Shown: in pieces, positions 3 through 55,162 of the stretch
How positions within the stretch are numbered: the stretch's first letter is position 1
Layout: each line of letters begins with the position of its first letter
NCBI GenBank assembly: GCA_001819495.1
Contig: MHMW01000021.1
Span: 10,706-74,705 of the forward strand
Direction of reading: 5' to 3'
Origin: Candidatus Portnoybacteria bacterium RBG_19FT_COMBO_36_7
GTDB lineage: Bacteria > Patescibacteriota > Minisyncoccia > Portnoybacterales > GWB1-42-6
DNA length: 64,000 nucleotides
Notes under the pieces: model-generated
The model's database searches: none
Told to the model about the DNA's origin: nothing
Seen by the model: only the letters and a program-made list of their open reading frames with translations
Translations under genes and position numbers: made by a program

Positions 3-1205
3 TGCGACGAAACTAGCATCGCCGTCTTACAAACAAAGGAGGACGGCGATTTTAGTATTCTCTCAAACATCGTTTCCTCGCAGGTTGCCATCCATGCACC
101 TTTTGGAGGAGTGGTACCAACTCTCGCCAAGAGAGAACATCAGAAAAATTTAACTCTCATTTTAAAACAGGGTCTTGCTGAAGCTAAGCTTTTAAAAGTT
201 CAAAGTTCAAAGTTCCCGCCCGCCTCGCAAGCGAGAGCGTTGCGGGCAGGCAAAGTTCAAAGTAACAGTGCAAAATTCAAAGTTTTAAAACAAATTCTTA
301 ATCGAGAAGAAACGCTTTTTAAAAAATTAATGCCGTTCCTTAAAAAGTACGCCAAACCCGATATTGACGTAATTGCTGTTACTGTCGGTCCGGGTCTTGA
401 GCCAGCGCTTTGGGTAGGCGTTAATTCTGCCAAAGCGCTCGCCTGCTTCTGGGATCTGTCGATAATTCCTGTCAATCACGTTGAAGCCCATATTATCGCT
501 AATTGGCTCAAGCCAATTAGCGGAGCTCAAAACTCAAATGCCAGAACTCAAAACTTATTTCCGGCGGATTGCTTAATTGTGAGCGGCGGGCACACACAAT
601 TGGTTCTGATGCGCGATTTTGGAAAATACGAGATTCTGGGCGAAACGCGGGATGACGCGGCAGGAGAGGCATTTGATAAACTGGCTAAAATGTTAAATAT
701 TGGATATCCAGGTGGTCCTATAGTTTCAAAACTCTCAGCCCAAGCCAAGAAACAAAAGCTTGCCCCGAGCGTAGTCGAGGGGTTAAAAGTTAAATTACCG
801 AGGCCGATGATAAATTCAAAAGACTATGATTTTTCTTTTTCTGGTCTTAAAACAGCCGCTCTTTATTTTGTCAAAACGCTGAATAAAAAAACACTTAAAA
901 AATTAACTCCAGCAATTTGTGCTGAATTCCAGCAAGCTGCAATAGACGTCCTGGTTTCCAAAACCATCCGCGCGGCCAAAGAATATAATGTAAAATCTGT
1001 CTTGCTCTCCGGCGGCGTCGCGGCCAATGACCTCTTACGCACGTCACTAGAAAAAGAATTCAAACGATTTGGCTTAGTTTTTTCCGTTCCGCCCAAAAAA
1101 TTCTGCACCGATAACGCCGCTATGATAGCGCTGACAGCGGCTAAAAAAACAAAAAAATATAATTGGCAGGAAATCACAACTGAGGCAAATTTGCGAATAG
1201 CTTAA
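3..1205 (+). CDS. tsaD: tRNA N6-adenosine threonylcarbamoyltransferase TsaD (Kae1/Gcp family). It is 5'-partial: the reading frame continues from the window edge upstream of the listed ORF start at 111
   Basis: Translation from nt 3 gives CDETSIAVL...HAPFGGVVPTLAKREH, then VTVGPGLEPALWVGV, VSGGHTQL, DDAAGEAFDK, PGGP, DFSFSGLKT, CTDNAAMIA. These are the canonical TsaD motifs. Confidence 0.85.
   Translation, partial: CDETSIAVLQTKEDGDFSILSNIVSSQVAIHAPFGGVVPTLAKREHQKNLTLILKQGLAEAKLLKVQSSKFPPASQARALRAGKVQSNSAKFKVLKQILNREETLFKKLMPFLKKYAKPDIDVIAVTVGPGLEPALWVGVNSAKALACFWDLSIIPVNHVEAHIIANWLKPISGAQNSNARTQNLFPADCLIVSGGHTQLVLMRDFGKYEILGETRDDAAGEAFDKLAKMLNIGYPGGPIVSKLSAQAKKQKLAPSVVEGLKVKLPRPMINSKDYDFSFSGLKTAALYFVKTLNKKTLKKLTPAICAEFQQAAIDVLVSKTIRAAKEYNVKSVLLSGGVAANDLLRTSLEKEFKRFGLVFSVPPKKFCTDNAAMIALTAAKKTKKYNWQEITTEANLRIA
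178..292. repeat. In-frame insertion of a short-period AT-rich repeat (caaagtt units) flanking a GC-rich palindrome (cccgcccgcctcgcaagcgagagcgttgcgggcagg). It is translated as LKVQSSKFPPASQARALRAGKVQSNSAKFKVLKQ inside TsaD
   Basis: Tandem caaagttcaaagtt units on both sides of a GC palindrome. The segment is a multiple of 3 and interrupts the otherwise conserved TsaD N-terminal region. Related motifs occur at 20815-20850, 57736-57762 and 63940-63990. Confidence 0.5.
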
Positions 1206-1226: not shown

Positions 1227-3401
1227 ATGGAAAATAACGGAAATAAAGCTTATAATCCCCGCGAAATCGAGCCTGAAATCTACAAATTATGGGAATATTC
1301 GGGTTATTTTAATCCCGACAATTTACCTGTTTCAAAAATTAAAAATTCAAAAATTAAAAATTTTTGCATTATAATGCCCCCTCCCAATGCCAACGAAGCC
1401 CTGCATATGGGCCACGCACTTGATTTTACTATCCAGGACGCGCTTATCCGTTTTAACCGAATGCAGGACAAAAAAACACTCTGGCTGCCTGGTGCCGACC
1501 ATGCCGGCTTTGAAACCCAGGTTGTTTTTGAGAAAAAACTTGAGAAAGAAGGTAAAAGCAGGTTCCAGTTTGAACGTAGCACTCTCTATAAAATGATCTG
1601 GGATTATGTCCAGCAGAACAAGCATATTATGGAAGAGCAGGCCAGGAGCTTAGGTGCTTCCTGCGACTGGTCAAGAGAAAAATTTACTCTTGACCCAAAA
1701 ATAGTGGAGATTGTCTATGATACTTTTAAAAAACTTTACGACGATAAACTTATCTATCGGGGCAAAAGAATAATCAATTGGTGCCCAAAACATCAGACTG
1801 GCTTGTCCGACCTGGAAGTCAAATACGAAGAACGGGAAGATAAGCTCTGGTATTTTAAATACCCCCTCTCCTCGGGTGAAGGATTTATAGTCGTGGCGAC
1901 GACCCGCCCCGAAACTATGCTTGGCGACACGGCTGTAGCTGTTAATCCGAAAGATAACCGCTACAAAAAATTGATCGACCAAAAAGTTAAACTGCCTCTG
2001 ACAAATAGAGAAATTCCGATCATTACCGACAGTGCGGTTGAGCTGGAATTTGGCACCGGCGCGGTCAAGGTAACGCCTGCGCATGATCCGGTTGACTTTG
2101 ATATCGCGGATAGACACAAACTGGAGTTCATCGAGGTCATCGGCAAAGACGGAAAAATGACCAACGAGGTGCCAGAAGCCTATCAAGGATTAAAGGTTGA
2201 TGATGCCCGCGCCAAGGTAGTGGTAGATCTAAACGCACTGGGCCTGATGGAAAAAGAAGAACCTTATAAACATTCTGTCGGCGCCTGCTATAAATGCGGC
2301 CGGACAATCGAGCCCTTAGCAATGGAGCAATGGTTCGTCAAAATAAAACCGCTGGCCGAAAAAGCAATTGAAGCGGTCAAAAAAGGCAAGACAAGGTTCG
2401 TCACAAAAAAGTACGAAAAGACATTTATGCACTGGATGAGGAATATCAAAGATTGGAATATTTCCCGCCAAATAGTCTGGGGCATCCGCATCCCGGCTTG
2501 GTATAAAAATGACCAGATTCATATCGGCAAAGAGCCCCCAAAAGAAGATGGCTGGGTTCAAGATACCGATGTTTTTGACACTTGGTTCTCTTCGGGCCAG
2601 TGGCCCTTCGTCACTTTGATGACCAGCGGCCAAAATGACTTAAAAGAATTTTATCCAACATCAGTAATGGTCACTGCCTGGGATATTTTATTTTTCTGGG
2701 TGGCACGCATGATAATGATGGGAATTTATTGCACAGGTAAAGAACCATTCAAACAAGTTTACATTCACGGACTCCTCAAAGACAAATACGGCAAAAAAAT
2801 GAGCAAATCAAAAGGCAATGTTATCAATCCTCTGGCAGTAGTAGAGCAGCGCGGAGCAGACGCCTTGCGCATGTCTCTCCTGTTTGGTTCTGAAGCTGAC
2901 AGTGATACTCCAATTTCTGAAGAAAAAATTATCGCCCAGCAGAGGTTTGCCAATAAGATCTGGAATGCTTCAAAGTTCGTGATGAATGCACTCGGGCCAG
3001 ACTACAAGCCAACCAAACCCGCCCGAGGCGCCCAGTCCGCCGACGGGTGGAGGTCCGCCATGGATGGATACACCAAAGAAGACAAATGGATATTGAAAGA
3101 ACTTGAAAAAGCGACTAAAAAGATCACGACAGATATCGAAAAATATAAATTCCACGAAGCGGCACAGGAAGCATATCACTTCTTCTGGCACAAGTTTTGC
3201 GACAAAACTATAGAAGATGTTAAAATAAGGATACAGAAAAATTCCAAAGACGCTGACGCTGGCAAACTCGTGGTTTGGACTGTTTTATATAATTCCCTGA
3301 AGCTTCTCCATCCTTTTATGCCCTTTGTCACTGAAGCTATCTATCAGAAGCTCCCCTCCCGGCCAAAAGAACTCTTGATGATTGAAAAATGGCCAAAATA
3401 A
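1227..3401 (+). CDS. valS: Valine--tRNA ligase, short form (724 aa). It lacks the long C-terminal coiled-coil domain
   Basis: PPPNANEALHMGHAL (HIGH region), LWLPGADHAGFETQ, CDWSREKFTLD, INWCPKHQTGLSDLEV, KMSKSKGN (KMSKS). Confidence 0.85.
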   Translation: MENNGNKAYNPREIEPEIYKLWEYSGYFNPDNLPVSKIKNSKIKNFCIIMPPPNANEALHMGHALDFTIQDALIRFNRMQDKKTLWLPGADHAGFETQVVFEKKLEKEGKSRFQFERSTLYKMIWDYVQQNKHIMEEQARSLGASCDWSREKFTLDPKIVEIVYDTFKKLYDDKLIYRGKRIINWCPKHQTGLSDLEVKYEEREDKLWYFKYPLSSGEGFIVVATTRPETMLGDTAVAVNPKDNRYKKLIDQKVKLPLTNREIPIITDSAVELEFGTGAVKVTPAHDPVDFDIADRHKLEFIEVIGKDGKMTNEVPEAYQGLKVDDARAKVVVDLNALGLMEKEEPYKHSVGACYKCGRTIEPLAMEQWFVKIKPLAEKAIEAVKKGKTRFVTKKYEKTFMHWMRNIKDWNISRQIVWGIRIPAWYKNDQIHIGKEPPKEDGWVQDTDVFDTWFSSGQWPFVTLMTSGQNDLKEFYPTSVMVTAWDILFFWVARMIMMGIYCTGKEPFKQVYIHGLLKDKYGKKMSKSKGNVINPLAVVEQRGADALRMSLLFGSEADSDTPISEEKIIAQQRFANKIWNASKFVMNALGPDYKPTKPARGAQSADGWRSAMDGYTKEDKWILKELEKATKKITTDIEKYKFHEAAQEAYHFFWHKFCDKTIEDVKIRIQKNSKDADAGKLVVWTVLYNSLKLLHPFMPFVTEAIYQKLPSRPKELLMIEKWPK

Positions 3402-3403
3402 TT

Positions 3404-3520
3404 CCCAATTACCAATAACCAATTCCCAATAAAATTTCTAATGTCCAAATGTCCAAAAATGCCCCACAAGGCGGGGCATGGATTGGAAATTGGAAATTGG
3501 AAATTGGAAATTTTACGTGA
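3404..3520. terminator. GC stem (gccccacaaggcggggc) embedded in a long imperfect inverted repeat of ccaat/attgg-type pentamer units. Probable bidirectional terminator or insulator between valS and the next gene
   Basis: ccaattaccaataaccaattcccaat ... gccccacaaggcggggc ... tggattggaaattggaaattggaaattggaaatt. The two flanks are imperfect reverse complements. Confidence 0.4.
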
Positions 3521-4296
3521 TTTATCTTCTCTACGCCATTTTCGGCCTCTTGCCCAGCGTTATCTGGCTTCTTTTTTATCTGCGAAAAGACAAACATCCT
3601 GAACCAAACAGAATGGTCGTCAAAATTTTTCTCTGGGGAATGCTGATGGGGCCGCTGGCCATTTTAGCTGAACTTTTCATAAAATGGCTGATGAACCCCG
3701 TAGATCTGGCAAATTTTATTGATATTTTGAGAACGAACGCAAAGGATAGCTATCTTTTTATCGGCATAGTTTTTGTTGCCCCGGTAGTTGAGGAAATCGT
3801 AAAATACGCGGTGGTTCACTTTGCCGTGCTTAAAAATCCTGATTTTGATGAACCGATTGATCTTATGCTCTATATGATTATCGCTGCTCTTGGCTTTGCG
3901 GCTATCGAAAATCTATTGCTTATTTTCCAAACTCCCCTGCCTGCTCTAGATAAAGTTATCACCCTGGCCGCGTTGCGATTCGTCTCGGCCACTTTTTTGC
4001 ATGCGTTAAGCTCCGGGCTTTTGGGATACTGGCTGGCCAAATCCATGCGTGACCCGGCCAAAAAAATCCAGTATCTGGCTCGAGGCTTTGGCCTTGCCAT
4101 TTTTTTCCATGCCAGTTACAATTATCTTACCTGGATCATTTCTGATAACCAGCCCTATGGTTCTGTTATTGCAATAGTTATGACCGTTCTTCTTCTTTCT
4201 TTCATGGCAGTCGCTGCATCTTATAATTTTTCGCTTTTGAAAAAAATGCATTCTGTCTGCAAAATCTGTAAGCCCCGTCCCAGCTTTTGGTCTTAA
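3478..4296 (+). CDS. Multi-pass membrane protein, PrsW-like intramembrane metalloprotease family (putative). The true start may be downstream, at MVVKIF
   Basis: About 7 hydrophobic helices. VVEEIVKYAVV (EExxK motif), FLHALSSG and FFHASYNY histidine motifs are typical of PrsW/CPBP-like proteases. Confidence 0.4.
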   Translation: MDWKLEIGNWKFYVIYLLYAIFGLLPSVIWLLFYLRKDKHPEPNRMVVKIFLWGMLMGPLAILAELFIKWLMNPVDLANFIDILRTNAKDSYLFIGIVFVAPVVEEIVKYAVVHFAVLKNPDFDEPIDLMLYMIIAALGFAAIENLLLIFQTPLPALDKVITLAALRFVSATFLHALSSGLLGYWLAKSMRDPAKKIQYLARGFGLAIFFHASYNYLTWIISDNQPYGSVIAIVMTVLLLSFMAVAASYNFSLLKKMHSVCKICKPRPSFWS

Positions 4297-9195: not shown

Positions 9196-9662
9196 ATAAT
9201 CTCTTTAAGCTGTCTCGGAGAGGGCTTTTTGGTTTACCTTTGTTAAATCCCGCAAAGCGGGAGCTGCAAAGCAGCTATTTAACAGGGTGACTACTCTCGT
9301 CAACCGACATTTTAGGTCTTGCCTGACCCACTCCGACCCAAGGTCGGAGCAATCGACACTACTTCCTCTTATATTAAAAAATATAAGAAAGGAGGTGATC
9401 CATCCACAGCTTCCGCTACGGATGCCTTGTTACGACTTCGTCCCTGTCACCGAGCCTACCTTGAAACCAATAAATTGGCGCTTCCGGTATTCCCGGCTTC
9501 CTTGACGTGACGGGCGGTGAGTACAAGACTTGAGAACGTATTCACCGCGCCATGGCTGATGCGCGATTACTAGCGATTCCGGCTTCATGAGGTCGGGTTG
9601 CAGACCTCAATCCGAACTGGGACCGGCTTTGATGGGATTAGCTCCATGTTACCATTTCGCTT

Positions 9663-9693
<31 letters not shown>

Positions 9694-10332
9694 AGCCCAG
9701 GTCATCAAAGGATCACGCTGATTTGACGTCATCCCCGCCTTCCTCCCCATTGTCTGAGGCAGTCTGCTGCGACACTTGTAACGCAGCATAAGGGTTGCGC
9801 TCGTTTCCTCACTTAAGAGAACAGCTCACGCCACGAGCTGACGACAACCGTGCAATACCTGACCCATCTGTCCTTGTGAGACATCGGCTGTTTCCAGCAG
9901 ACTTCAGATGGATGTCTAGACCTGGTAAGGTTCCTCGCTTGTCGTCGAATTGAACCACATGCTCCACCGCTTGTGCAAGTCCCCGTCTATTTCTTTGAGT
10001 TTTAGCCTTGCGGCCGTACTTCCCAGGCGGCAAACTTAACGCGTTAGCTTCGCCACCTGAAGGGTCGATACTTCAAATGGCTAGTTTGCATAGTTTAGGG
10101 CGTGGACTACAAGGGTATCTAATCCTTTTTGCTCCCCACGCTTTCGTCTCTCAGGGTCAGAGTAGCGCTAGCTGAATGCCTTCGCTTTTGGTGTTCCCTA
10201 CGATATCAACGGATTTCACCCCTACACCGTAGGTTCCATCAGCCTCTCGCACTCTCTAGTTTTGACGTTTCTTGCGCGGCGTTGGAGTTGAGCCCCAACA
10301 TTTAACACAAGACTATCAAAACCCCCTACAGA

Positions 10333-10363
<31 letters not shown>

Positions 10364-10454
10364 TGGGGTACTCGTCTTACCGCTCCTGCTGGCACGAGTT
10401 TAGGAACCCCTTATTCTTAGGGTACGCTCATTACGCTCCTCGCTTTCGCTCGTC

Positions 10455-10600
10455 GCTCAAATTAAAATTTTAAAGTTAAAAGTGTGAAATCATTGTATCG
10501 CTACGCAATGATTTATATATAATCATCCCGCGAAGCGGGGCACCTTAATTTTTAACTTTTCATTTTCCATTTTTAACTTAGCTCCGAACGTAAGTGAGGA
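10455..10600 (-). repeat. Insertion (~150 nt) in the V3 hairpin of 16S, built from the genome-wide AT-rich repeat family (aaagttaaaa / aatttttaac arms) around a GC palindrome
   Basis: Flanking 16S sequence aligns to E. coli ~430-500. The inserted segment is caaattaaaattttaaagttaaaagtgtgaaatc - core with cccgcgaagcgggg - ccttaatttttaacttttcattttccatttttaactt. The arms are inverted repeats. Confidence 0.5.
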
Positions 10601-10989
10601 GCGCATTGCTCCCCTATAAAAGAGTTTTACACCCCGAAGGGCTTCTTCACTCACGCGGCGTCGCTCGATCACGCTTTCGCGCATTGTCGAAGATTCTCGA
10701 CTGCAGCCTCCCGTAGGAGTCCGGACAGTTTCTCAGTTCCGATGTTGGGGGCCGACCTCTCAGTCCCCCTACCCGTCATCGCCTTGGTGGGCCGTTACCT
10801 CACCAACTAGCTGATAGGACGCAGGCCTCTCCTGAAGCAACCCTTGCGGGTCTTTAAATGAGAATGACATAAGTCCCCTCATTACTATCTTGTATTAGTC
10901 CCGATTTCTCGGGATTATTCAAAACTTCAGGGTAAGTTACCTACGCGTTACTAACCCGTTTGCCACTACCGCTCGTGCTTCGCTATCGC

Positions 10990-11045
10990 TCATCACTCGC
11001 TCAAATTAAAAGTTTAAATTTTCATTTTTAATTTTTAACTTAAGT
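10990..11045 (-). repeat. Insertion (~55 nt) in the V1 hairpin of 16S from the same AT-rich repeat family
   Basis: caaattaaaagtttaaattttcatttttaatttttaactt lies between CAAGTCGAACG...GCACAAAC and the GAGCGGTAGTGGCAAACGGGT region. Confidence 0.4.
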
Positions 11046-11726
11046 TTGTGCTGAACATAGTGAAGCACAAACGATCGTTCGACTTGCATGCCCGTATCCA
11101 CGCCGCCAGCGTTCATCCTGAGCTAGAATCAAACTCTCATTGTAAATGTTAGAACTAAAATTGCTGAATCGATCTTCGACCGTCCCACAAAATGCGGGGC
11201 AGTAAAGCGACTCAACACCTCTAGAATCCAACAAGTTTTTTCGAGACAACTTAAAAAGATTATCTCATCTCGCCGAAGCTCCGAATGGAGCATAGGCGGA
11301 TTAGCTCAAAAAAAATCTGGTTTATCCCGTTACATCCGCCAAAAAGACGGAAGTATTTATTACATCCCTTATAGTAGGATGCAATGGGATTTATTTAACC
11401 TTACTTTTTGTCTGTATTTTGTTGTTAAAGTTCAATCAAGTTTATCCATTTATACCCTCTTTCGCCCTGCAGGCTACGGACGGGTTATTCTCTTACGAGA
11501 ATAAAAAATACAACTAGTCAGACCTCTTAACTAATATTTAATTAAGAACCCCTCAAGTTGTATTTTCTAACTAACAAACTGATAACTGACAAACTGATTT
11601 TTTTTAATGGGTTCTTCTACATAGGCGTATTTTTCCTTTCCGCCCCGCAACTGCAGGGCTCTATGCAATGTCTATTTTACTCCTCTCAGTTAGCTTGTCA
11701 AGTGCTTAAATTTTACTTATCAAAAA

Positions 11727-12011
11727 CTACGATTTTTTATTATTTCTTTTATATTTTATATAGATAATTACGACTGCAATTCCAAAAATTAATGGGACTA
11801 AAAATAGAATATCAATCATACAACTACTCGAGCAATAGCCCCAAAAACCGTATGAATACATTTCTATAAACAACAATATTATGAAAACAACTAAACCAGA
11901 TAATAATCCAAATAGAATTCCAATTAAATTTTTCATTATATAGAGTACGTCTATTACAATGCCTTTGCCACATATTCTGTCATTTCTGCCAAGCGACACG
12001 CATAACCCCAT
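11727..12011 (-). CDS. Small hydrophobic protein (2 TM helices). The probable true start is at the internal MKNLIGILFG; the listed N-terminus is an out-of-frame read of a gap 3'-end remnant
   Basis: Hydrophobic segments GILFGLLSGLVVFIILLF and ILFLVPLIFGIAVVIIYI. The first 17 codons overlap the gap-fragment copy. Confidence 0.3.
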   Translation of the reverse strand: MGLCVSLGRNDRICGKGIVIDVLYIMKNLIGILFGLLSGLVVFIILLFIEMYSYGFWGYCSSSCMIDILFLVPLIFGIAVVIIYIKYKRNNKKS

Positions 12012-12030
12012 TCATTATCATACCAAGCCA
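11954..12030 (-). other. Degenerate duplicate (copy C) of the gap gene 3' end, encoding LAWYDNEWGYACRLAEMTEYVAKAL*
   Basis: Reverse complement ttggcttggtatgataatgaatggggttatgcgtgtcgcttggcagaaatg... matches the real gap C-terminus (WYDNEWGYACRLAEMTDFVANSF*) at protein level, with many synonymous differences. Confidence 0.55.
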
Positions 12031-12037
12031 AAATATA

Positions 12038-12331
12038 TTATTTATGCCGCACGCCGACTTTCTTTTCCAAAACATCAACACGTTTTTGTAATTCAACCAG
12101 CTCAAAACGATACGCGACGTTATGTAATCGCAACATAATTGCTTCGTGCTCACGCGCATTCGTTTCTCCTATGCTCTTTATTTCTTTTTTCAATCCTTTC
12201 TCTATTCCTTCAATTTTCTCTCCCGTTTCATCAAAACCGTTTTTAACCATAACGGCCAAATCATTCATTGTAATTTTCTTATTCGCTTTTTTCATGCCTT
12301 TATTATATTTATTGTCAAATTTTTGAGACAT
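12038..12331 (-). CDS. Hypothetical coiled-coil protein (~97 aa). Its start codon lies inside gap-fragment copy B
   Basis: MSQKFDNKYNKGMKKANKK ... AIMLRLHNVAYRFELVELQKRVDVLEKKV. No recognisable family. Confidence 0.35.
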   Translation of the reverse strand: MSQKFDNKYNKGMKKANKKITMNDLAVMVKNGFDETGEKIEGIEKGLKKEIKSIGETNAREHEAIMLRLHNVAYRFELVELQKRVDVLEKKVGVRHK

Positions 12332-12380
12332 ACTCCGCCATTTCAGCCAGCCGACACGCGTAGCCCACATTCGTATCGCT
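12315..12380 (-). other. Degenerate duplicate (copy B) of the gap 3' end, encoding ...DTNVGYACRLAEMAEYVSKI*
   Basis: ggctacgcgtgtcggctggctgaaatggcggagtatgtctcaaaaatttga; GYACRLAEM is conserved with different codons. It is preceded by two hairpins (gagcacat..atgtgctc; caagaaacc..ggtttcttg). Confidence 0.5.
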
Positions 12381-12535
12381 CCTCACGGCAGAGCTCCCAA
12401 GAAACCATCGGTTTCTTGCGCTCCCGAGCACATAAAACGTCATGTGCTCGGTCGCTGATTTCCTCCGCGGGGAAACACCCAGTTTCCTCATCCCCCTTCT
12501 GATGAATGGGGCCCGGCTGAAAGGACTTAAATTTA

Positions 12536-13546
12536 TTAGAAAGAATTAGCCACAAAGTCGGTCATCTCAGCTAATCTACACGCATAACCCCACTCATTAT
12601 CATACCAGGCCAAGACCTTGACCAAGGTTTCATCCATCACCATCGTGTAATTTGCGTCAACGATGGAAGAATAGGTATTGCCTTTGTAATCTATAGAAAC
12701 CAGAGGTGCGTCTTCGATGCCCAGAATACCATCCAGTTCCTTTGTCTGAGACATTTTTTTGAATGTCATATTTATTTCTTCAGCCGAGGTCGGGGTTTTG
12801 ACAACGCAGACAAAATCGGTAATCGAAACGACCGGTGTCGGCACTCTTAGCGAAATTCCATCCAGTTTTCCCTCAAGCTCGGGTATTGTTTTTGTGACGG
12901 CAGTAGCCGCGCCGGTGGTTGTCGGAATAATGGAAAGTGCGGCGGCACGGGCTCTTCGCAGATCCTTATGCGGCAAATCCAGAAGGCGCTGGTCGTTGGT
13001 ATAGCTGTGAGCAGTGGTCATAAAACCGTGCAAAATCTTGAATTTATCGTTCAAAACCTTGACCACCGGGGCCAGGCAATTGGTGGTACAAGATGCCATT
13101 GATATAATATCGTCTTTTTCTGAATCGTACTTTTCTTCGTTCACGCCGAGAACATATGTCTGGATTTCCCTGCTTTTTGTCGGCGCGGAAATTATCACTT
13201 TTTTGGCGCCGGCCTCAAGATGTTTTTTGGCACCTTCATATTCTGTAAAAACCCCAGAACATTCAAGCACGATATCAACGCCCATTTCTTTCCAGGGCAA
13301 GCGAGCGGGCTCTTTTTCTGCCAGTATTTTAATTTTTTTGCCGCCAATTTCCAATCCCCCGTCTTTTCCTTTAACGATTTTATCATAAACCCCATACATG
13401 GAATCATACTTTAACAAATGAGCTAAAGTTGGCGCATCGGTCAAGTCATTGATAGCCACAATTTCCAATCCAGGAAAATGGCTTAAAATTCGCTTTAATG
13501 TTGGACGCCCTATTCTCCCAAATCCATTTATAGCTATTTTGGTCAT
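12536..13546 (-). CDS. gap: Type I glyceraldehyde-3-phosphate dehydrogenase
   Basis: MTKIAINGFGRIGR, ASCTTNCLAP, WYDNEWGY. Full-length, 336 aa. Confidence 0.9.
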   Translation of the reverse strand: MTKIAINGFGRIGRPTLKRILSHFPGLEIVAINDLTDAPTLAHLLKYDSMYGVYDKIVKGKDGGLEIGGKKIKILAEKEPARLPWKEMGVDIVLECSGVFTEYEGAKKHLEAGAKKVIISAPTKSREIQTYVLGVNEEKYDSEKDDIISMASCTTNCLAPVVKVLNDKFKILHGFMTTAHSYTNDQRLLDLPHKDLRRARAAALSIIPTTTGAATAVTKTIPELEGKLDGISLRVPTPVVSITDFVCVVKTPTSAEEINMTFKKMSQTKELDGILGIEDAPLVSIDYKGNTYSSIVDANYTMVMDETLVKVLAWYDNEWGYACRLAEMTDFVANSF

Positions 13547-13919: not shown

Positions 13920-13985
13920 ACATCCGAATTACTCTAATTTTATTCGTGTCATTCGGGTGTCAATTCGTGTCATTCGTGTCGCTAT
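13920..13985. repeat. Tandem decamer repeats (cattcgtgtc / cattcgggtg) with a catccgaatta motif, immediately upstream of the glutaredoxin gene. The same family occurs at 53125-53225
   Basis: catccgaattactctaattttattcgtgtcattcgggtgtcaattcgtgtcattcgtgtcgc. Confidence 0.5.
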
Positions 13986-18259: not shown

Positions 18260-19034
18260 ATAAGGAATCTAAACTATTTTTTGTGTACTTATACAGATTC
18301 GTGATGTTCTCTTCGTTTAAAATCTGAATGGCATAATTCCAATGAAACGAAATCCAATCCCCCACTTCAACATTTGGCAACATTGTTTTATCCCAATTAA
18401 TTTCTTTTTCTTTCATGCTTCCAAACTTTATTTTCTTTCTCCCGATTAATGGGTTATATTCAACAATAATTTTTAACTTTTCATTTTTAAATTTTAACTT
18501 TTTAACCCTCCCCCAGCCAACCCGGCAGATATCTTTTAGATCCGTCCTGCCTGCAAAATCAATGCTGCCGGTTACCGCCCCCAGAACCAGAACATGAAAA
18601 CTGTGGTGCGGTTTGGAAGAAACTGGAATTGCATCAGATTTTTCTTTCGCGGCTTTTCTTGATAATAAACCGGGGCCAGAAAATCTTTTAACAATCAATT
18701 CGCGCAAATCATTAAAAGTTACCTTTTCCAATAACTCATTGCCGAGCCAATAAGCTTCAATTACTTTTTTGTTCAAAGACCCTGTTTTAATTCTGTTTTT
18801 CTTGGCAATCAATTCGTAATAAGGATAGGCTGCCTGAAATCTTTTTAGGGCCGGGATTATATCGGGTATGCCCAATTTCCCCCTGATAAATTCTCTTAAG
18901 TTTTTCTGGTCTTCCGACAGCCCGCAAAGACCCATCTCATTTGGAATCAAGCCATATAGCGCCGCGATTTTAGGCCCTGACATTGATTTTTTCTCCCAGC
19001 AGTTTAATTTTTTCCAATATAAAACGGTACCCAA
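18252..19034 (-). CDS. Hypothetical protein with a C-terminal HypC/HupF-like domain. The alternative start MSGPKIAALYG at 18983 gives a shorter overlap with the upstream gene
   Basis: C-terminal DICRVGWGRV...VGDWISFHWNYAIQIL resembles HypC MC(L/I)(A/G)(I/V)PG...VGDWVLVHVGFAI. The N-terminal ~185 aa have no recognisable family. An in-frame AT-rich repeat insertion (KKLKFKNEKLK) is at 18440-18500. Confidence 0.4.
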   Translation of the reverse strand: MGTVLYWKKLNCWEKKSMSGPKIAALYGLIPNEMGLCGLSEDQKNLREFIRGKLGIPDIIPALKRFQAAYPYYELIAKKNRIKTGSLNKKVIEAYWLGNELLEKVTFNDLRELIVKRFSGPGLLSRKAAKEKSDAIPVSSKPHHSFHVLVLGAVTGSIDFAGRTDLKDICRVGWGRVKKLKFKNEKLKIIVEYNPLIGRKKIKFGSMKEKEINWDKTMLPNVEVGDWISFHWNYAIQILNEENITNLYKYTKNSLDSLYV

Positions 19035-19881
19035 GAATCATTATCAGACCTCCGGTTATCAGGCCGCTTGAAACAATCTCGCCAAAATTTATTTTTCCCG
19101 TTGAAGCGAATGCCAGCAAAGTGGTAATGGGAGATCCTAAAAGCAGAATTGCGGCTGCTGTAGAAACAGGAATATGCCTCAAACCGCTGTACCATGTTAT
19201 GACATAACCGAACAAGATAAAAGAAGCAATCTGGATCCAGAAAACCTGTTCAAAGTTAAGCTGGCTGATTATCGTCAATTGTCCGCTACCGGCCAGAAAA
19301 ATCAAAATCAGAATGGCGCCAAAAAACATTCTGCCCCAGGCAACGATCTTGGGTGACAGGCCTGCCAGCGCGTATTTTGATATAACGCTTTCAACCGCCC
19401 AAAGCAATGTGGCCAAAAATACATAAAAATCGCCGCGGTTAAAAGACAAATGAAGCGCTTTTAGGGCAATCAGATTTCCTGCCAATATCATCAGAGCTCC
19501 AATCAGCATTTCTTTTCTTATTTTTTCGCGCAAAAATATCGAGGCCAAAATCATAGTGTATATAAACATCGTTTTGTGGATAAAAGAACCTTGAGCGGCT
19601 GAGGTAATGGATAAACCTTTGAAAAATAACAAGAATGCGGCGCCGCCGCCCACAAATCCGATTACCAAAAGCATCAGCCACTGCTTTTTTGTCAGCTTGG
19701 CCAGCTGGCGCCATTCTTTGGCCAGCAGCACAAATCCGCTAAAAGCCAAAGCGACCATCACATTTTTTAAAAAAGCAAATAAGTACGGATTGACTCCGCC
19801 AACACCGTATTTGTTGATAAAAATCGAAAATCCCGAAATAATGGCGGTGATAAAAACTAATAATAATCCTTTTTTATTCAT
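18970..19881 (-). CDS. EamA/DMT-family 10-TM transporter
   Basis: Two duplicated 5-TM EamA-like halves. Confidence 0.7.
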   Translation of the reverse strand: MNKKGLLLVFITAIISGFSIFINKYGVGGVNPYLFAFLKNVMVALAFSGFVLLAKEWRQLAKLTKKQWLMLLVIGFVGGGAAFLLFFKGLSITSAAQGSFIHKTMFIYTMILASIFLREKIRKEMLIGALMILAGNLIALKALHLSFNRGDFYVFLATLLWAVESVISKYALAGLSPKIVAWGRMFFGAILILIFLAGSGQLTIISQLNFEQVFWIQIASFILFGYVITWYSGLRHIPVSTAAAILLLGSPITTLLAFASTGKINFGEIVSSGLITGGLIMILGYRFILEKIKLLGEKINVRA

Positions 19882-19990
19882 ACCAGGTAGTGAAAATTCG
19901 ACTTGTTATTGATAGATTATCAATAGCTTAGTCTTTTAATAAAATTACAGATGCCATATAGTAAAATCCGCATTATTTTTTATCCTGCTT
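19873..19990. repeat. Miniature inverted-repeat element, family B. The 21-bp terminal inverted repeats GCCAGGTAGTGAAAATTCGAC / GTCGAATTTCTACTACCTGGC enclose a core with the palindrome ttgatagattatcaa
   Basis: accaggtagtgaaaattcgac ... ggtcgaatttctactacctggc. Other copies are at 32903-32992, 47968-48045 and 48128-48192. Confidence 0.55.
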
Positions 19991-20231
19991 CGCGGGACGG
20001 TCGAATTTCTACTACCTGGCATGTTTTTTTCTTCGCACTTTTAAATAATTTATTAATTTCTTGCGCCTGTTTTTTGCTGATCTTCTGCACTATCACATTA
20101 TTTTGGGTCAGAACCCAGTCGCCTTTTTTGACAGAAATTATGGCGCCGACCTCCTGCGGCCCTTTTTGCGATTTCACCGTCGCAACGCCTTTTTTTAATC
20201 CGATAACTTGTTTTGGAATTGTCAGACACAT
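19980..20231 (-). CDS. hypC: Hydrogenase assembly chaperone HypC/HupF
   Basis: MCLTIPKQVIGL ... GDWVLTQNNVIVQKI; about 83 aa. Confidence 0.7.
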   Translation of the reverse strand: MCLTIPKQVIGLKKGVATVKSQKGPQEVGAIISVKKGDWVLTQNNVIVQKISKKQAQEINKLFKSAKKKTCQVVEIRPSREAG

Positions 20232-20249
20232 ATTCACTGTCGTTCAATT

Positions 20250-20320
20250 TAAAAAATGAAAATGAAAATGAAAATGTAAAAAAGTCATCCAGTTTTTAGT
20301 TTTTAAATTTTAATTTTTAA
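20250..20320. repeat. AT-rich short-period repeat block (aaaatg x4, then ttttaaatttt units)
   Basis: aaaatgaaaatgaaaatgaaaatgtaaaaaagtcatccagtttttagtttttaaattttaatttttaaatt. Confidence 0.4.
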
Positions 20321-20321
20321 A

Positions 20322-21185
20322 TTAAATTGCTCCCTGCACATTTTTTATCTGGTCATATCTGAACACCGGGCCCTGCTTGCAAACATAATGGCTTCCTATC
20401 CCGCAATGCTGGCAGACTCCGACTCCGCAGTGCATCCGCCGTTCAAACGAAAGATAAATATCTTCGTCAGCAAATCCGTATTTTTTCAATTTCTCCAAAA
20501 CGGCTTTATACATCACCGGCGGCCCACAGACAAATGCTCTGGCATCGGCAACAACAGAAACAACCTCAAATAACTTTGTAACCAAGCCAACGCACCCCTT
20601 CCAGTCTTCACAAACTTTATCTATGCTTAATTGAAGATTGACGCCGTCTTTCTGCCAAGATTCGTATTCATTGCGAAATAACATTTCCGAAGGATGCTTG
20701 GCGCCGTAAAATATCTGAATCTTGGCGTCTTTACCTAAAAATTCATTCTTGCCCAAAATCAAAGTCCTTAAAGGTATTAAGCCCAGTCCCCCGACAACTA
20801 TTAATAAATTCTTTTTTTCTTCATTTTTAACTTTAAACTTTGAACTTTGAACTTGAGCGCCAGCAATGGGCCAGCCGATGCCAAAAGGTCCTCTGATGCC
20901 GATTTTATCCCCCACTTTCAAAATATGCATTCTATTGGTCAGTTTCCCTATCGCTCTTATGCAAAGTTCTAAATTTTTTCCTGGCTTGTTGCAGGGCGCA
21001 AAGGGCGCTTCGCCAAACCCAGGCAAAGACAGCATAATGAATTGGCCTGGATAAATTCTGGCATCTTCATCAAATCTTAATTGAAAATGCATCTTGTCAA
21101 AGCCCAATTCAAACAGTTTGATGCCCGGCACATGGTCGGAAATCTTCAGAATTTTTGCCGTTTTGGTCTCGTAAAGATTAAACAT
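20322..21185 (-). CDS. Hydrogenase gamma subunit / AsrB-like FAD-NAD(P)-binding oxidoreductase with a C-terminal [2Fe-2S] cluster
   Basis: FNR-like fold motifs (GPFG, LLIVVGGLGLIPL) and C-terminal RRMHCGVGVCQHCGIG. It carries an in-frame repeat insertion QVQSSKFKVKNEEKK at 20815-20850. Confidence 0.75.
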   Translation of the reverse strand: MFNLYETKTAKILKISDHVPGIKLFELGFDKMHFQLRFDEDARIYPGQFIMLSLPGFGEAPFAPCNKPGKNLELCIRAIGKLTNRMHILKVGDKIGIRGPFGIGWPIAGAQVQSSKFKVKNEEKKNLLIVVGGLGLIPLRTLILGKNEFLGKDAKIQIFYGAKHPSEMLFRNEYESWQKDGVNLQLSIDKVCEDWKGCVGLVTKLFEVVSVVADARAFVCGPPVMYKAVLEKLKKYGFADEDIYLSFERRMHCGVGVCQHCGIGSHYVCKQGPVFRYDQIKNVQGAI

Positions 21186-29767: not shown

Positions 29768-30328
29768 TTATCTTTTTACCAGTTTGCGCTTTGCGTTAAA
29801 ATAAGTTACTAAATGTTTTCTCTTGTTCTTGGTGATGTATAAAGCGAAGTAAATAACCGCCAAAACACAAAAATTTATAGCCAAAATATAATTATTGTCT
29901 CCCCAGTTAATGGAATCAATACTAAAAGAAGACAGAGGATATAGAAATGGTGTAGCGAAATATTTGACGCTGTGAAAAGGAATATCAACTAAAATATGAA
30001 TGCCCCAGGCAGCCAGCGGCCACCATGGTTTTTTCAGGATCAGCCAAACAGCGATAAAAGCGATGGCAAAAAAAACAAGACTATGGCTAAAAGAATAAAG
30101 AGTCGGAATTATTTCTGGTCCCACCGGATTCAAATGTACCCTCGTGCTGTCAACGAAAGAAATACCCTTGAATATGGAAATTACGACATAAATGCCGTTT
30201 GAAAAAAGATCCGGCGCCACGGAAAAAATTATCGGCCACCAGATTTTTTTCTCTTTTCTATAAATTAAGCCTGTCCAGAGGCTGTGAGAAAAAATATCCA
30301 CAATATTAATGTAAAATTTAAAATGCAA
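29768..30328 (-). CDS. Hypothetical polytopic membrane protein inserted between the ABC permease and ATPase genes
   Basis: 5-6 hydrophobic helices; no recognisable motifs. Confidence 0.45.
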   Translation of the reverse strand: MHFKFYINIVDIFSHSLWTGLIYRKEKKIWWPIIFSVAPDLFSNGIYVVISIFKGISFVDSTRVHLNPVGPEIIPTLYSFSHSLVFFAIAFIAVWLILKKPWWPLAAWGIHILVDIPFHSVKYFATPFLYPLSSFSIDSINWGDNNYILAINFCVLAVIYFALYITKNKRKHLVTYFNAKRKLVKR

Positions 30329-30440
30329 AAATTAAAATGACAGATCAAAATTAAAAATTAGCTAATGCTAAAATCATTTTAAATTTTGCCCATTTTGCAT
30401 TTTACATTGTCGTTTTTAATTTTGATATTTGATTCTTGAA

Positions 30441-31151
30441 TTATTTAAGCTTTCCATCTCCTGCCCTGCGCCTGTGATTGACTATTTCATCTCCGATAAC
30501 GCAACCGTCTTTCATCTTAATGATCCGCTTGGCAAAACGCGCGGTTTCTGTTTCGTGGGTGACGACAACAATCGTGTGGCCTTTTTCGTTCAATTCCTCC
30601 AAAACCTGCATTATCTGCTCGCCTCCCTTTGAATCTAGGTTGCCGGTCGGCTCATCCGCCAAAATAAGCAAAGGATTATTGACCAGAGCCCTGGCAATCG
30701 CCACTCTCTGCTGTTCACCGCCGGACAACTGACTTGGCATATGATTTGCCCGATGCGACAAGCCAACAGCCGCAATCGCTGACTTAGCCGTATCCCCAAT
30801 CTTTTGTTTGTTCTCCTTATAAAAAAGAGGTAGCATAACGTTATCAAACACGCTGGTCCGCGGCAACAGATTATAGCTTTGAAAAACAAATCCAATTTTT
30901 TCATTCCTGATTTCAGCCAGCTGATCATCAGAAAATCTGGCAAAATTCTGGCCCTCAAACAAATACTGGCCGTATGTCGGCCGGTCTAAAAATCCTAATA
31001 TATGCATCAAAGTTGATTTTCCGCATCCCGAAGGCCCCATGATTGCGACAAATTCGCCTTTCTCAATTCTAAGGCTGATGCCGCAAAGGGCTTTGGTGAC
31101 TATTCCATCGCCGTATTCTTTGATAATATCCTTTGTCTCAATTATGACCAT
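30441..31151 (-). CDS. ABC transporter ATP-binding protein (MacB/LolD-like)
   Basis: GPSGCGKSTL (Walker A), LSGGEQQRVAIARAL (signature), LILADEPTGNLD (Walker B). Confidence 0.85.
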   Translation of the reverse strand: MVIIETKDIIKEYGDGIVTKALCGISLRIEKGEFVAIMGPSGCGKSTLMHILGFLDRPTYGQYLFEGQNFARFSDDQLAEIRNEKIGFVFQSYNLLPRTSVFDNVMLPLFYKENKQKIGDTAKSAIAAVGLSHRANHMPSQLSGGEQQRVAIARALVNNPLLILADEPTGNLDSKGGEQIMQVLEELNEKGHTIVVVTHETETARFAKRIIKMKDGCVIGDEIVNHRRRAGDGKLK

Positions 31152-32902: not shown

Positions 32903-32992
32903 ACCTTGCCCGGTAGTGAAATTTCGGCATATTTTTTGAATTTAGCCCCGCCAGGCGGGGCCAGCCGAAATTCTACTACCGGGCTTGACATT
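32903..32992. repeat. Family-B inverted-repeat element, divergent copy (cccggtagtgaaatttcggc ... ccgaaattctactaccgggc), with core palindrome ccccgccaggcgggg
   Basis: See 19873-19990. Confidence 0.5.
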
Positions 32993-33015
32993 TCTTATAA
33001 ATCTGCTATAATATA
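32982..33015 (+). promoter_or_regulatory. Sigma-70-like promoter (TTGACA - 17 nt - TATAAT), followed by a ~240-nt structured leader
   Basis: cttgacatttcttataaatctgctataatatacc. Confidence 0.45.
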
Positions 33016-46059: not shown

Positions 46060-46131
46060 GCGCCCGTAGCTCAGTGGTAGAGCACGACTCTTATAAAGTC
46101 GGGGTCCTTGGTCCGATCCCAAGCGGGCGCA
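46060..46131 (+). tRNA. tRNA-Ile (anticodon TAT as encoded). An unusual UAU isoacceptor if unmodified
   Basis: GCGCCCG-TA-GCTC-AGTGGTA-GAGC-A-CGACT-CTTATAA-AGTCG-GGGTC-CTTGG-TCCGATC-CCAAG-CGGGCGC-A; 72 nt. Confidence 0.55.
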
Positions 46132-46201
46132 CTAAAATAGCCTAAAGCATATGGCTTATAGCACATAATCCGCTAAAAGCTATCTGCCAAAAGCTATTAT
46201 C

Positions 46202-47068: not shown

Positions 47069-47976
47069 AATTCATAGCCAAAAAAGAAAACGTTGGCCGG
47101 CGGCTCGATAAACTTATTGCCGGGTATTGGCCGCAATATTCGCGCGCCTATATTCAAAAACAGGTCAAAGGCGGCGCGGTTCTGGTCAACGGCCAGATAA
47201 AAAAATCTAGTTATTTATTGAAAGAAAACGACGAAATTGAGGCAAATATTTTACCACTTCCTGAAATTTCTCTTGAGCCTGACCAAACAATTGAACTAAA
47301 AATTATTTATGAGGACGATGACGTGATAGTGATTGATAAGCCTGCCGGTTTAATTGTTCATCCAAGCGCCACCCAGAAAAGCGGCACGCTTGTGAACGGC
47401 TTGCTCGCCCACTATCCCCTGCTCAAAGGCGTCGGAGAGGACCCAGTCAGACCAGGCATTGTCCATCGCCTTGATAAAGACACTTCTGGCCTGATGATTG
47501 TCTCTAAAAACAACGAATCGTTTGGATTCTTAAAAGACCAGTTCAAGAACAAAAAGGTTGAAAAAAAATATCTGGTTTTGGTGGCTGGCCGGCCGAAAGA
47601 ATCATCCGGCAAAATTAAAACTTTCATCAGCCGCAGCAAATCAGATCCGACCAGACAAAAAATTTCACAGCACGGAGCAAAAGAAGCAATCACTTTTTAC
47701 AAAACCATACGCGAATTTCGTAATTTTACTTTAATTGAGGCCGTTCCAAAAACCGGGCGCATGCATCAGATAAGAGTGCAGCTAGCTTGGCTGGGCAATC
47801 CAGTGACCTGCGACAATAAATACGGGCTAAAAAAGCGCGCCTGCCCCGAAGGCCTGACCAGGCAATTTCTGCACGCGGCAAAGCTGACAGTAGTCTTGCC
47901 CGACGGTCAAAAGAAATCTTTCATCAGCCATCTGCCGCCTGATCTCGATATAATATTAGCTAGCCTTGCCAGGTAG
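47065..47976 (+). CDS. RluA-family 23S rRNA pseudouridine synthase (RluD/RluC-like) with an S4 domain
   Basis: RLDKLIAG (S4), VIVIDKPAGLIVHP, HRLDKDTSGLMIV (catalytic Asp). Confidence 0.85.
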   Translation: MKFIAKKENVGRRLDKLIAGYWPQYSRAYIQKQVKGGAVLVNGQIKKSSYLLKENDEIEANILPLPEISLEPDQTIELKIIYEDDDVIVIDKPAGLIVHPSATQKSGTLVNGLLAHYPLLKGVGEDPVRPGIVHRLDKDTSGLMIVSKNNESFGFLKDQFKNKKVEKKYLVLVAGRPKESSGKIKTFISRSKSDPTRQKISQHGAKEAITFYKTIREFRNFTLIEAVPKTGRMHQIRVQLAWLGNPVTCDNKYGLKKRACPEGLTRQFLHAAKLTVVLPDGQKKSFISHLPPDLDIILASLAR

Positions 47977-48045
47977 TGAAAATTCGACATTTTTTTTGAT
48001 TTTTGATCGCCTTCGGCGATCAGTCGAATTTCTACTACCTGGCTT
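47968..48045. repeat. Family-B inverted-repeat element, copy 3 (core palindrome gatcgccttcggcgatc)
   Basis: gccaggtagtgaaaattcgac ... gtcgaatttctactacctggc. Confidence 0.55.
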
Positions 48046-48127
48046 GAAATAAAATGATATTTGTGCTAAAATTTCAAAGTTAATATAATTAAGACAGTAT
48101 TTCACCGAAAGACTGTTTTTATATACT

Positions 48128-48192
48128 TTGCCAGGTAGTGAAATTCGACTGCTGCCTGGCAACCATTTAATTTTAAATTGTCGAATTTCTAT
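48128..48192. repeat. Family-B inverted-repeat element, copy 4 (short core)
   Basis: gccaggtagtgaaattcgac tgctgcctggcaaccatttaattttaaattg tcgaatttctattacctagc. Confidence 0.5.
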
Positions 48193-48200
48193 TACCTAGC

Positions 48201-48587
48201 ATGAAAATGACAGAAGAACAACTGAAAAAAGATCTGCCGGAAATTAAGCCCGGCTATACCGTTATTGTCCACCAAAAAATTAAGGAAGGCGACAAAGAAA
48301 GAATCCAGCATTTTCAGGGACTGGTTATTGCTCAAAAACATGGCTCTGGAATAAACGCTACTTTTACCGTGCGCAAAATTTCCGCCGGCGTGGCGGTTGA
48401 ACGAATTTTCCCGCTTCATTCTCCAAACATCCAAAAAATTGAAGTAGTCAAAAAATCAAAAGTGCGGCGGGCCAAACTCTATTATCTTCGCGGCCGTTTT
48501 GGCAAACAGGCAAAGATGAAAAAGACAGAGGCGGTGGTGCCCGAAACCGTTTTGCCGGAGCAAACGCCTGACCAAACTGCTGAATAA
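48201..48587 (+). CDS. rplS: 50S ribosomal protein L19
   Basis: [34 protein letters not shown]...[21 protein letters not shown]. Confidence 0.9.
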
Positions 48588-49155: not shown

Positions 49156-49159
49156 TTCT

Positions 49160-55135: not shown

Positions 55136-55162
55136 CTTGAATTTTCCTCCCCTCCTCAGATG

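Follow-up and report, generated by a model that had tools for sequence, protein, structure and literature searches.

The gene tsaD, at the start of a 64-kb stretch of DNA from Candidatus Portnoybacteria bacterium RBG_19FT_COMBO_36_7 (hereafter the window, meaning the whole stretch analysed and the part of this genome covered here), contains at positions 178–292 repeated DNA that reads in frame with the rest of the gene. Comparison with relatives indicates that this segment is built of a tandem array of 7-nt units and of a 36-nt GC-rich imperfect palindrome (hereafter the 36-mer), which in this lineage is inserted precisely into the array. Judged by its sequence, the 36-mer is a member of a high-copy, almost invariant family that spans at least two phyla. 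We favour the view that the segment is repeat material at the DNA level, translated as a tolerated surface loop, and that it exemplifies two independent layers, selfish mini-elements and a heptamer microsatellite; for this reading as a whole we estimate a probability of roughly 0.7. The original prediction, made from the letters of the window, had described one selfish repeat family entering coding genes in frame. Its selfish, in-frame character probably holds, but the single family resolves into a heptamer microsatellite and discrete mini-palindromes nested in it.

A 36-nt palindrome within a heptamer array of tsaD

The tsaD frame (3–1205, plus strand), truncated at its 5′ end by the window edge, was taken from the listing of open reading frames (ORFs) and identified by its matches to the TsaD structures of T. 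maritima and E. coli (E ~1e-67). These alignments break at query residues 58–116, and the region between residues 58 and 116 is wholly extra relative to T. maritima TsaD. The product is 100% identical to a protein of the organism named above, a member of the candidate phyla radiation (CPR). The segment at 178–292, referred to below as hot spot 1, had been described together with its translation in the original prediction, and orthologue alignment confirmed both the palindrome and the array. Its left part is an (AAAGTTC)n array encoding KVQSSKF (195–214, plus strand; period 7 with a 100% match in Tandem Repeats Finder, TRF). Next comes the 36-mer, CCCGCCCGCCTCGCAAGCGAGAGCGTTGCGGGCAGG, with the predicted translation PPASQARALRAG (215–250, plus strand), recognised from the orthologue alignment, its folds and its metagenome copies. 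The right continuation of the array, partly degenerate (CAAAGTTCAAAGT...AAAATTCAAAGTT; 251–292, plus strand), is again of period 7 in TRF and is collinear with the array of the orthologous locus L001.

To define the boundaries of the insertion, the tsaD DNA was aligned with three orthologous loci (L001, L003 and L004) fetched by exact-protein look-up. In L001, a syntenic relative with 69% TsaD protein identity, the array reads AAAGTTCAAAGTTCAAATTTCAAAGTT; it is unbroken there and in L003, and relative to both loci the window has 36 extra bases at 215–250, equal to 12 codons. Because removal of exactly these 36 nt restores both the length and the array (AAAGTT/CAAAGTT), with AAAGTTCAAAGTT as the empty-site sequence for 195–263, the insertion is precise and lacks a target-site duplication. 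Both its exact boundaries and its presence or absence between relatives are demonstrated by this comparison. The original prediction had raised terminal repeats and target-site duplications as possible hallmarks; the duplication at the tsaD 36-mer measured 0 nt against the empty site in L001. The extra residues it encodes are not shared by the L001 and L003 proteins, and L004 has two other small GC hairpins at the position of hot spot 1.

The tsaD 36-mer is predicted to fold with -18.9 kcal/mol as RNA (214–249) and -11.5 kcal/mol as DNA. Its length is a multiple of three and it has zero stop codons in all six frames, a property read directly from the sequence and thus demonstrated; being 12 codons long and open in six frames, it keeps the frame wherever it lands in a gene. 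A search of Rfam over the tsaD segment gave no family match up to E 10, and in the window as a whole Rfam returned nothing besides the 16S rRNA and eight tRNAs.

We then scanned a public metagenome collection with only the stems of the 36-mer specified (GCCCGCCTCGCNNGCGAGNNNNNNGCGGGC) and recovered at least 120 loci. Among the matches listed, to which the counts in this paragraph and the next two refer, an identical 30-nt core, unspecified positions included, was present in 112 of 125 copies. Of 102 copies, 84 had CCC and AGG as the bases bordering this core, while another 9 had CCC with GGG. The flanks were otherwise unrelated, in loci ranging from 34 to 55% GC, with a pyrimidine at the +1 flank in 93 of 102 copies and no conserved flanking tetranucleotide. 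Similarity between copies that does not exceed the expectation for low-complexity DNA had been named as an outcome that would undermine the original prediction; the uniformity of the 36-mer lies well above it, as do that of an AT-rich 31-mer and that of a 30-nt double hairpin, both described below. Membership of the tsaD insert in a family is accordingly demonstrated.

Of 111 distinct copies, 30 (~27%) were surrounded by open frames that extend 40 codons or more to either side, and within coding ORFs all six frames were used, in either orientation. Judged by reading the translations, the host ORFs include DnaE, a RecB-like helicase, a phosphoenolpyruvate-utilising enzyme, LepA, CysRS, UvrC, MurD and DinB, together with a TsaD-like protein that carries the 36-mer at the position equivalent to hot spot 1, in a different frame. 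Host identities were backed by homology look-up for DnaE, LepA and a class V aminotransferase only. The 36-mer-bearing DnaE is 99% identical to a protein from a 'Deltaproteobacteria' metagenome-assembled genome and 91% identical to one from Desulfobacterales, the aminotransferase comes from Candidatus Zambryskibacteria, and LepA from Parcubacteria. In the last case the 36-mer lies in a composite insert of 53 residues that is missing in seven LepA proteins of at least 90% identity, so this insertion is recent.

Copies nested in heptamer arrays were seen in the window and at L231, L140 and L187, and others sit in the centres of other palindromes. Inverted flanks accompanied 13 of 102 copies, compared with 3.7% among controls (3.4-fold), and 3 of 204 flanks were strictly of period 7, compared with 0.2% among controls. 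An obligatory target was rejected, as most copies have neither array nor palindromic flanks. The 36-mer and its six translations find no mention in the searchable open-access literature.

Some copies stand in more elaborate surroundings. At L132, L155, L186, L203, L204, L209, L214, L221 and L224 the 36-mer is central in one larger palindrome, flanked by TTTCTCAGTTTCGTC on one side and CGGAAACTGAGAAA on the other; as it is always the same palindrome in this group of contigs, composite nested units appear to propagate too. L186 and L209 each hold a pair of these units, which are 2.8 kb from one another and lie around cysC and toxin-antitoxin-like genes. Directly beside the 36-mer of the LepA insert (L142, ~4080–4120) lies a related yet distinct palindrome, GCCCGCATCGCCTTGCGAAGCATGGCGGGC, which hints at a superfamily of elements with a common GCCCGC/GCGGGC outer stem. 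In the Desulfobacterales DnaE of L153, the 36-mer is surrounded by several nested GC-rich segments derived from repeats, ~100 residues in all (residues ~300–400), and KSKIQNPKSKI, encoded by heptamers, lies near the N-terminus. Many database homologues of this DnaE are 'partial' and on short contigs, as expected if repeats break assemblies. The 36-mer also occurs within sequence resembling a tRNA D-arm, at L131 (contig end), L141/L211 (4848–4903) and L225. Insertion into tRNA genes was considered and rejected, as ARAGORN and Rfam call none there and excision of the 36-mer in silico restores none; these contexts are tRNA-like fragments.

Heptamer arrays and related inserts in genes, rRNA and spacers

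The second layer was assessed by counting tandem arrays under one fixed criterion against third-order Markov simulations. The window contains 16 period-7 arrays where 0.43 are expected, with no enrichment at other periods from 4 to 16, and TRF finds the same arrays. A 20-mer of the (AAAGTTC) type has five matches in the window (0.02 expected), and the AT-rich 31-mer ATTTTTAACTTTTCATTTTTAATTTTTAACT has four copies at no more than three mismatches (0.00 expected), located in two 16S rRNA inserts, one tRNA spacer and one ORF of the DUF6390 family. Because an ordered 31-mer recurs in this way, the AT-rich arms represent a true dispersed family and not merely low-complexity DNA. The sequence of the heptamer unit varies from site to site within the window. 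Between genes, the arrays usually come in pairs, one arm A-rich and the other its T-rich complement, which enclose a GC hairpin and make palindromes of 80–170 nt. Inside genes the sense strand is always the A-rich one, which is explained by the complement (GAACTTT)n running into TGA in every frame within 21 nt.

A second scan, covering one genome per species for (AAARTTC)3, listed matches in Nostocales, Bacteroidales, Pyrinomonadaceae, Verrucomicrobia, Desulfobacterales and several CPR lineages, and some of the matches listed are inverted array pairs around GC hairpins, like those of the window. Period 7 also prevails when tandem repeats of the relatives' loci are counted. Around 36-mer copies (681 kb), period-7 arrays number 156, compared with 18 for period 6 and 12 for period 8. 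This predominance, here in many phyla, echoes the unexplained heptamer repeats of cyanobacteria. In Nostoc parmelioides (L039, 3–410), an ORF resembling a REP-associated tyrosine transposase (RAYT; REP, repetitive extragenic palindrome) lies within ~300 nt of an (AAARTTC)n array. This tentative match is a single case and a possible lead linking heptamer arrays to HUH enzymes.

Among TsaD orthologues (alignments of n = 28 and n = 120), protein length ranges from 336 to 509 amino acids, with the variation concentrated in a few blocks. Hot spot 1 (window 178–292) ranges from 16 to 58 amino acids. Two further hot spots, both on the plus strand, had not been listed in the original prediction. Hot spot 2 (526–555) is a (CTCAAAA)n heptamer array encoding AQNSNARTQN, detected by TRF and as a hypervariable block of 2–47 amino acids, with a predicted local distance difference test score (pLDDT) of 43. 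Hot spot 3 (750–797; 4–48 amino acids; pLDDT 56) has A-rich flanks around a small GC hairpin, GCCCCGAGCGTAGTCGAGGGG (762–782), and gives the protein ~10 residues more than T. maritima TsaD; no second copy of this hairpin was found in the 1.7 Mb of sequence compared. An AlphaFold model of TsaD built from the alignment has a mean pLDDT of 85, and its sole low-confidence blocks, residues 81–100, 181–190 and 261–270, are the three hot spots, which on the terms of the model demonstrates a loop location for the inserts. Certain inserted peptides appear at one hot spot in some orthologues and at another in others: SAKGGSASGGK at 1 and 3, KEGWGGF at 2 and 3, and both PPTGDLPKGD and KVAWQPRCFTQFP at 1 and 2.

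The first of these peptides corresponds to a 30-nt double hairpin, TCCGCCAAAGGCGGATCCGCCTCTGGCGGA, found with few substitutions in five organisms, at TsaD hot spots 1 and 3 and at a hot spot of DUF6390. Like the 36-mer, it is a multiple of three and stop-free in all frames. All five copies are nevertheless read in the same frame, as SAKGGSASGG or a close variant, which suggests selection on the peptide and hence translation.

Comparable inserts were confirmed as extras in two of the other genes named in the original prediction. In valS, an A-rich array of period 15 (8+7) encodes SKIKNSKIKN in frame (1331–1363, plus strand; TRF and orthologue comparison), giving ValRS 8 residues (SKIKNSKI) more than the T. 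thermophilus enzyme; the 86%-identical ValS of L001 has a shorter, unrelated KKGAKP in its place. In a sulfhydrogenase gamma-like subunit, an (AAAGTTC)-type array (20823–20857, minus strand; the 20-mer with 1 mismatch) encodes QVQSSKFKV in frame, and the subunit is 12 residues (AGAQVQSSKFKV) longer than the Pyrococcus gamma subunit 9nez_C and 9 residues longer than the syntenic Portnoybacteria orthologue at L252. The proposal that repeat-encoded residues form lineage-specific loop insertions stands for the 36-mer, lacking in L001 and L003, for the low-pLDDT TsaD loops and for valS in so far as L001 lacks its array, but the valS array is of a different kind from the heptamers. A second valS insert, previously unlisted, is GC-rich and adds a net 36 nt (12 codons, within ARGAQSADGWRSAMDG; 3018–3068 with approximate boundaries, plus strand). 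It is lacking in the L001 ValS, forms a GC island with a predicted fold of -24.4 kcal/mol, and has no other copy in the 1.7 Mb compared.

An example presented as HypC-like does carry an in-frame extra, at 18467–18505 (minus strand), where the AT-rich 31-mer arm with 1 mismatch encodes KKLKFKNEKLK in the A-rich sense; by Pfam, however, the ORF is DUF6390 and not HypC. Many of its homologues (n = 109) have no insert at this spot, between GRVxx and KxK. Others have there the heptamer-encoded KKLKIKNEKLK or KKFKVQSSKFK, and further ones SAKGGSASGGK, VIPAKAGIQ...GMT or CHPELVSGSRSRNEFGMT. Two remaining examples did not survive. The hppA array occupies the first 8 codons of a TTG-started ORF, ahead of homology that starts at residue 20, and is probably a 5′ leader, and the tail of the hypA-like gene is a period-10 repeat of a different family.

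The repeats also occur beyond coding sites, in the 16S rRNA gene and in a tRNA spacer. The 16S gene (9388–11144, minus strand) holds two inserts of the heptamer-arm kind, neither of them noted before. One, of 166 nt, replaces the tip of the V3 helix (10435–10600, minus strand) with complementary heptamer arms around GC hairpins, where the Rfam model has 11 nt; it contains the 31-mer and folds as one long hairpin (z = -2.9). The other, of 86 nt, is a heptamer-arm hairpin in the loop of helix 6 (V1; 10978–11063, minus strand), where the model has 2 nt; it contains the 31-mer with 3 mismatches and also folds as a long hairpin. The syntenic Portnoybacteria relative L252 has a full-length 16S gene without either insert. 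Between the tRNA-Phe and tRNA-Gly genes lies a composite of A-rich arm, core and complementary T-rich arm (49035–49159; -25.8 kcal/mol, z = -5.9) that includes the 31-mer with 1 mismatch.

Other composites are intergenic and, like the tRNA-spacer element, carry no strand assignment. The valS–prsW spacer (3399–3516; TRF, fold z = -3.9) has inverted heptamer arms of another unit (CCAATTN / ATTGGAA) with a GC hairpin. Inverted heptamer arms also make up the element at 30308–30441, identified from the array list, sequence and fold, and the similar composites at 20246–20324, 50782–50879, 57734–57857 and 59151–59308, taken from the array list and sequence; three folds of this type reach z = -3.1 to -3.3. 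Most heptamer-arm intergenic elements fold as long hairpins, with z from -3 to -6, and the copy at 20240–20330 folds without significance (z = -0.9). The core of the 59151–59308 element (59184–59212), GTCATCCTGAGGGCGAAGCCCGAAGGATC, reads VILRAKPEGS in one frame and has no second copy in the 1.7 Mb compared. The peptide is one that we take to resemble a repeat-borne motif that turns up, translated, in 'hypothetical proteins' from many phyla.

Mechanism, alternatives and known systems

In the mechanism that we propose, heptamer arrays would change length by slippage and offer favoured landing sites, and the 36-mer would be a selfish element that is itself translated. It may move as a DNA hairpin with the enzyme supplied in trans, the closest analogy being an HUH/Y1-type single-strand transposase. 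Landing in a gene, it would add 12 residues with the frame kept; copies would survive in loops of essential proteins, and selection would remove them elsewhere. Several points weigh against this reading. We infer both the translation and the mobility of the inserts from sequence, and near-identity across phyla could reflect functional constraint instead of recent mobility. The window holds a single copy of the 36-mer, which by itself does not demonstrate proliferation within this genome, and the preference for arrays or palindrome centres is real but modest. A phmmer search of the window and of the 681 kb of 36-mer loci, with IS608 TnpA and E. coli RAYT as queries, revealed no mobilising enzyme, which is a weak negative; the queries matched only the Nostoc locus L039, and nothing near a 36-mer.

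If the proposal holds, the odd lengths of CPR housekeeping proteins, such as those of TsaD, and some short 16S insertions would become explicable by nested selfish DNA and not by lineage-specific function, and the hot spots would provide a natural map of insertion-tolerant positions in TsaD, ValRS, LepA, DnaE and MurD. Repeats of this kind also break metagenome assemblies, inflate alignments and phylogenies, and give rise to spurious hypothetical proteins. A bolder version, which we consider conceivable but less likely than not, would count the 36-mer and relatives such as the 30-nt hairpin among the smallest mobile DNA elements, handled by unrecognised, widely conserved or horizontally carried machinery that acts on single-stranded or slipped DNA, with the heptamer arrays as landing pads or as a by-product. 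Were this true, mini-elements would quite generally supply essential proteins of uncultured bacteria with new loops and their rRNA helices with extensions, and would mark DNA exchange between CPR cells and other members of their communities.

Of the alternatives, the one that survives best, though we consider it unlikely, is that the inserts behave as intervening sequences and are cut out of the RNA, so that they stay untranslated and their in-frame property is incidental. The same repeat class does sit at the tips of two 16S rRNA helices, CPR rRNA insertions have been reported absent from transcripts (PMC11270868, PMC9297842, citing Brown et al. 2015), and stable hairpins could serve as RNase III substrates. 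For protein-coding copies, however, this would leave unexplained why 36-mer and 30-mer alike have lengths divisible by three and no stop in any of six frames, and why the array orientation in genes is always stop-free; the one frame kept by the 30-mer in five of five copies, with its Gly/Ser/Ala-rich peptide, points instead to selection on a translated product. Removal of the 36-mer in silico restored no tRNA, and we know of no bacterial system that excises a hairpin from mRNA with religation.

It is improbable that no mobile element is involved at all and that the inserts are linkers produced by local slippage and AT bias, with GC hairpins arising in place, for example by template switching. 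Such a process cannot account for 36-mers that are identical at over 100 unrelated sites of two or more phyla, for one 30-mer shared by DUF6390 and two TsaD hot spots (1 and 3), or for an ordered 31-mer in rRNA, a tRNA spacer and coding sequence. It would fit the GC cores of tsaD hot spot 3 and of the second valS insert, single in the sequence compared, and also the heptamer units, which differ by site yet occur in distant orthologues at a common TsaD position, as a long-lived local microsatellite would be. Local origin is thus refuted for the 36-mer, the 30-mer and the 31-mer, and may apply to the growth and shrinkage of the heptamer arrays themselves.

We give similarly little credence to the idea that each copy of the hairpin is under local selection for a function, for example as a site where a conserved protein binds or acts in processing, and that this function keeps it invariant. 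Near-perfect conservation across hosts of 34–55% GC and an asymmetric internal loop constant in all copies would suit it, but copies lie in either orientation and in six frames of unrelated housekeeping genes, close relatives lack them with no visible compensation, and no Rfam family matches. An assembly or sequencing artefact is scarcely credible: the 36-mer is a short GC-rich palindrome and many contigs end at or near it, yet it comes from many projects and pipelines (JGI, ENA Hainich and several GenBank whole-genome shotgun sets), it is exactly 36 nt at every site, and the same gene continues in frame on both sides.

Turning to known systems, the closest match in behaviour is the Rickettsia palindromic element (RPE), to which the repeat had been likened from the outset. 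RPEs are palindromic selfish repeats found in frame in unrelated housekeeping genes and in intergenic DNA, presumably tolerated at sites that fit protein folding, and described as exceptional for their in-frame insertions (PMC10969869). The likeness stands for in-frame behaviour, since here too a palindromic repeat occurs in frame in unrelated coding genes and in non-coding DNA, both intergenic and rRNA. It fails on size and range: RPEs are ~100–150 bp with one conserved peptide frame per family and are restricted to Rickettsia, whereas the units here measure 30–36 nt and not ~100–150 nt, the 36-mer is read in all six frames, and hosts include Portnoybacteria, Zambryskibacteria, Parcubacteria and Desulfobacterales. 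In addition, the present units are nested in heptamer microsatellites and identical across phyla.

In architecture the closest counterpart is probably that of the small dispersed repeats (SDR) of cyanobacteria, in Nostoc. Elhai and colleagues reportedly described these in 2008 as apparently mobile hairpins of 21–27 nt, often placed in tandem heptamers (short tandemly repeated repetitive sequences, STRR) or nested within other repeats; they are said to cause no target duplication and to move by an unexplained mechanism, and colonisation of coding sequence was reportedly not a theme of that work. A very small hairpin in tandem heptamers or nested in repeats, with no duplication, is likewise what we see at window 195–292, L004, L125–L128 and L231, and (AAARTTC)3 arrays occur in many Nostocales among the matches listed. 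The cyanobacterial sequences are reportedly different, and the hosts here belong to other phyla.

REPs and REPINs are GC-rich imperfect palindromes of 20–40 nt, in high copy, that cause no target duplication and presumably move via single-stranded hairpin DNA, and HUH/Y1 transposases mobilise IS200/IS605 elements and REPs without duplication (PMC3116915, PMC6006769). They are extragenic and species-specific, with a GTAG/GTGG tetranucleotide at the hairpin foot (PMC6006769). The 36-mer matches REPs in size, composition and copy number. It differs in that no tetranucleotide, be it GTAG/GTGG or CGTC, is conserved in the flanks of the 102 copies listed, in that some 27% of copies fall within open frames, and in that the same sequence is found in CPR and Desulfobacterales. 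Known REP/RAYT biology does not account for the identity of a 36-nt element in different phyla, which suggests either an unrecognised way of mobilisation or an exchange of genes between ultra-small bacteria and the organisms around them. MITEs, the miniature transposable elements with terminal inverted repeats and a target-site duplication, differ in that at the tsaD 36-mer this duplication is 0 nt.

The helix 6 and V3 inserts resemble rRNA intervening sequences (IVSs), which RNase III cuts out of rRNA with no religation, in that an extended stem-loop replaces a variable helix tip. Two papers on CPR rRNA insertions treat introns, homing-endonuclease ORFs and IVS families (PMC11270868, PMC9297842). 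Hairpins with heptamer arms common to coding genes and tRNA spacers are not a topic of theirs, and a term search of both found no mention of repeats, hairpins or heptamers. The supposition that the feature was new to this lineage agrees with the absence of any description of heptamer arrays or in-frame mini-palindromes in CPR from the searchable, open-access literature, outside which an earlier description is possible. Neither layer is, however, limited to the lineage, as arrays occur in many phyla and the 36-mer in a Desulfobacterales DnaE.

Other repeats and features of the window

A second structured repeat family occurs at 19878–20032, 32904–32996 and 47964–48055, with a solo arm at 48180–48209. 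In this family, inverted arms of 20 bp at the termini (GCCAGGTAGTGAAAATTCGAC ... GTCGAATTTCTACTACCTGGC) frame a GC hairpin plus a T run; three arm pairs show compensatory changes across the three copies, and the family has no Rfam match. Period-9 arrays (ATTCGTGTC / ATTCGGGTC) at 13942–13980 and 53134–53172, two distant intergenic sites, have flanks that agree at 71% over 56 nt. A pair of 48-nt GC-rich inverted repeats of the CCCCTCCTCAGATGAGGAGGGG type (55142–55189 and 55599–55646) flanks a 125-residue ORF beside hppA.

Between the intact GAPDH gene (12536–13546) and the 16S rRNA gene lies an orphan fragment of the GAPDH C-terminus, LAWYDNEWGYACRLAEMTEYVAKAL followed by a stop. The corresponding sites are 11952–12031 (minus strand), 12310–12389 and 12534–12613; at the DNA level the fragment matches the 3′ end of the intact gene with 81% identity, and a third, degenerate copy is present as well. 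Finally, the tRNA-Ile at 46060–46132 has the anticodon UAU, which is uncommon in bacteria, where AUA is usually read by a modified CAU anticodon.

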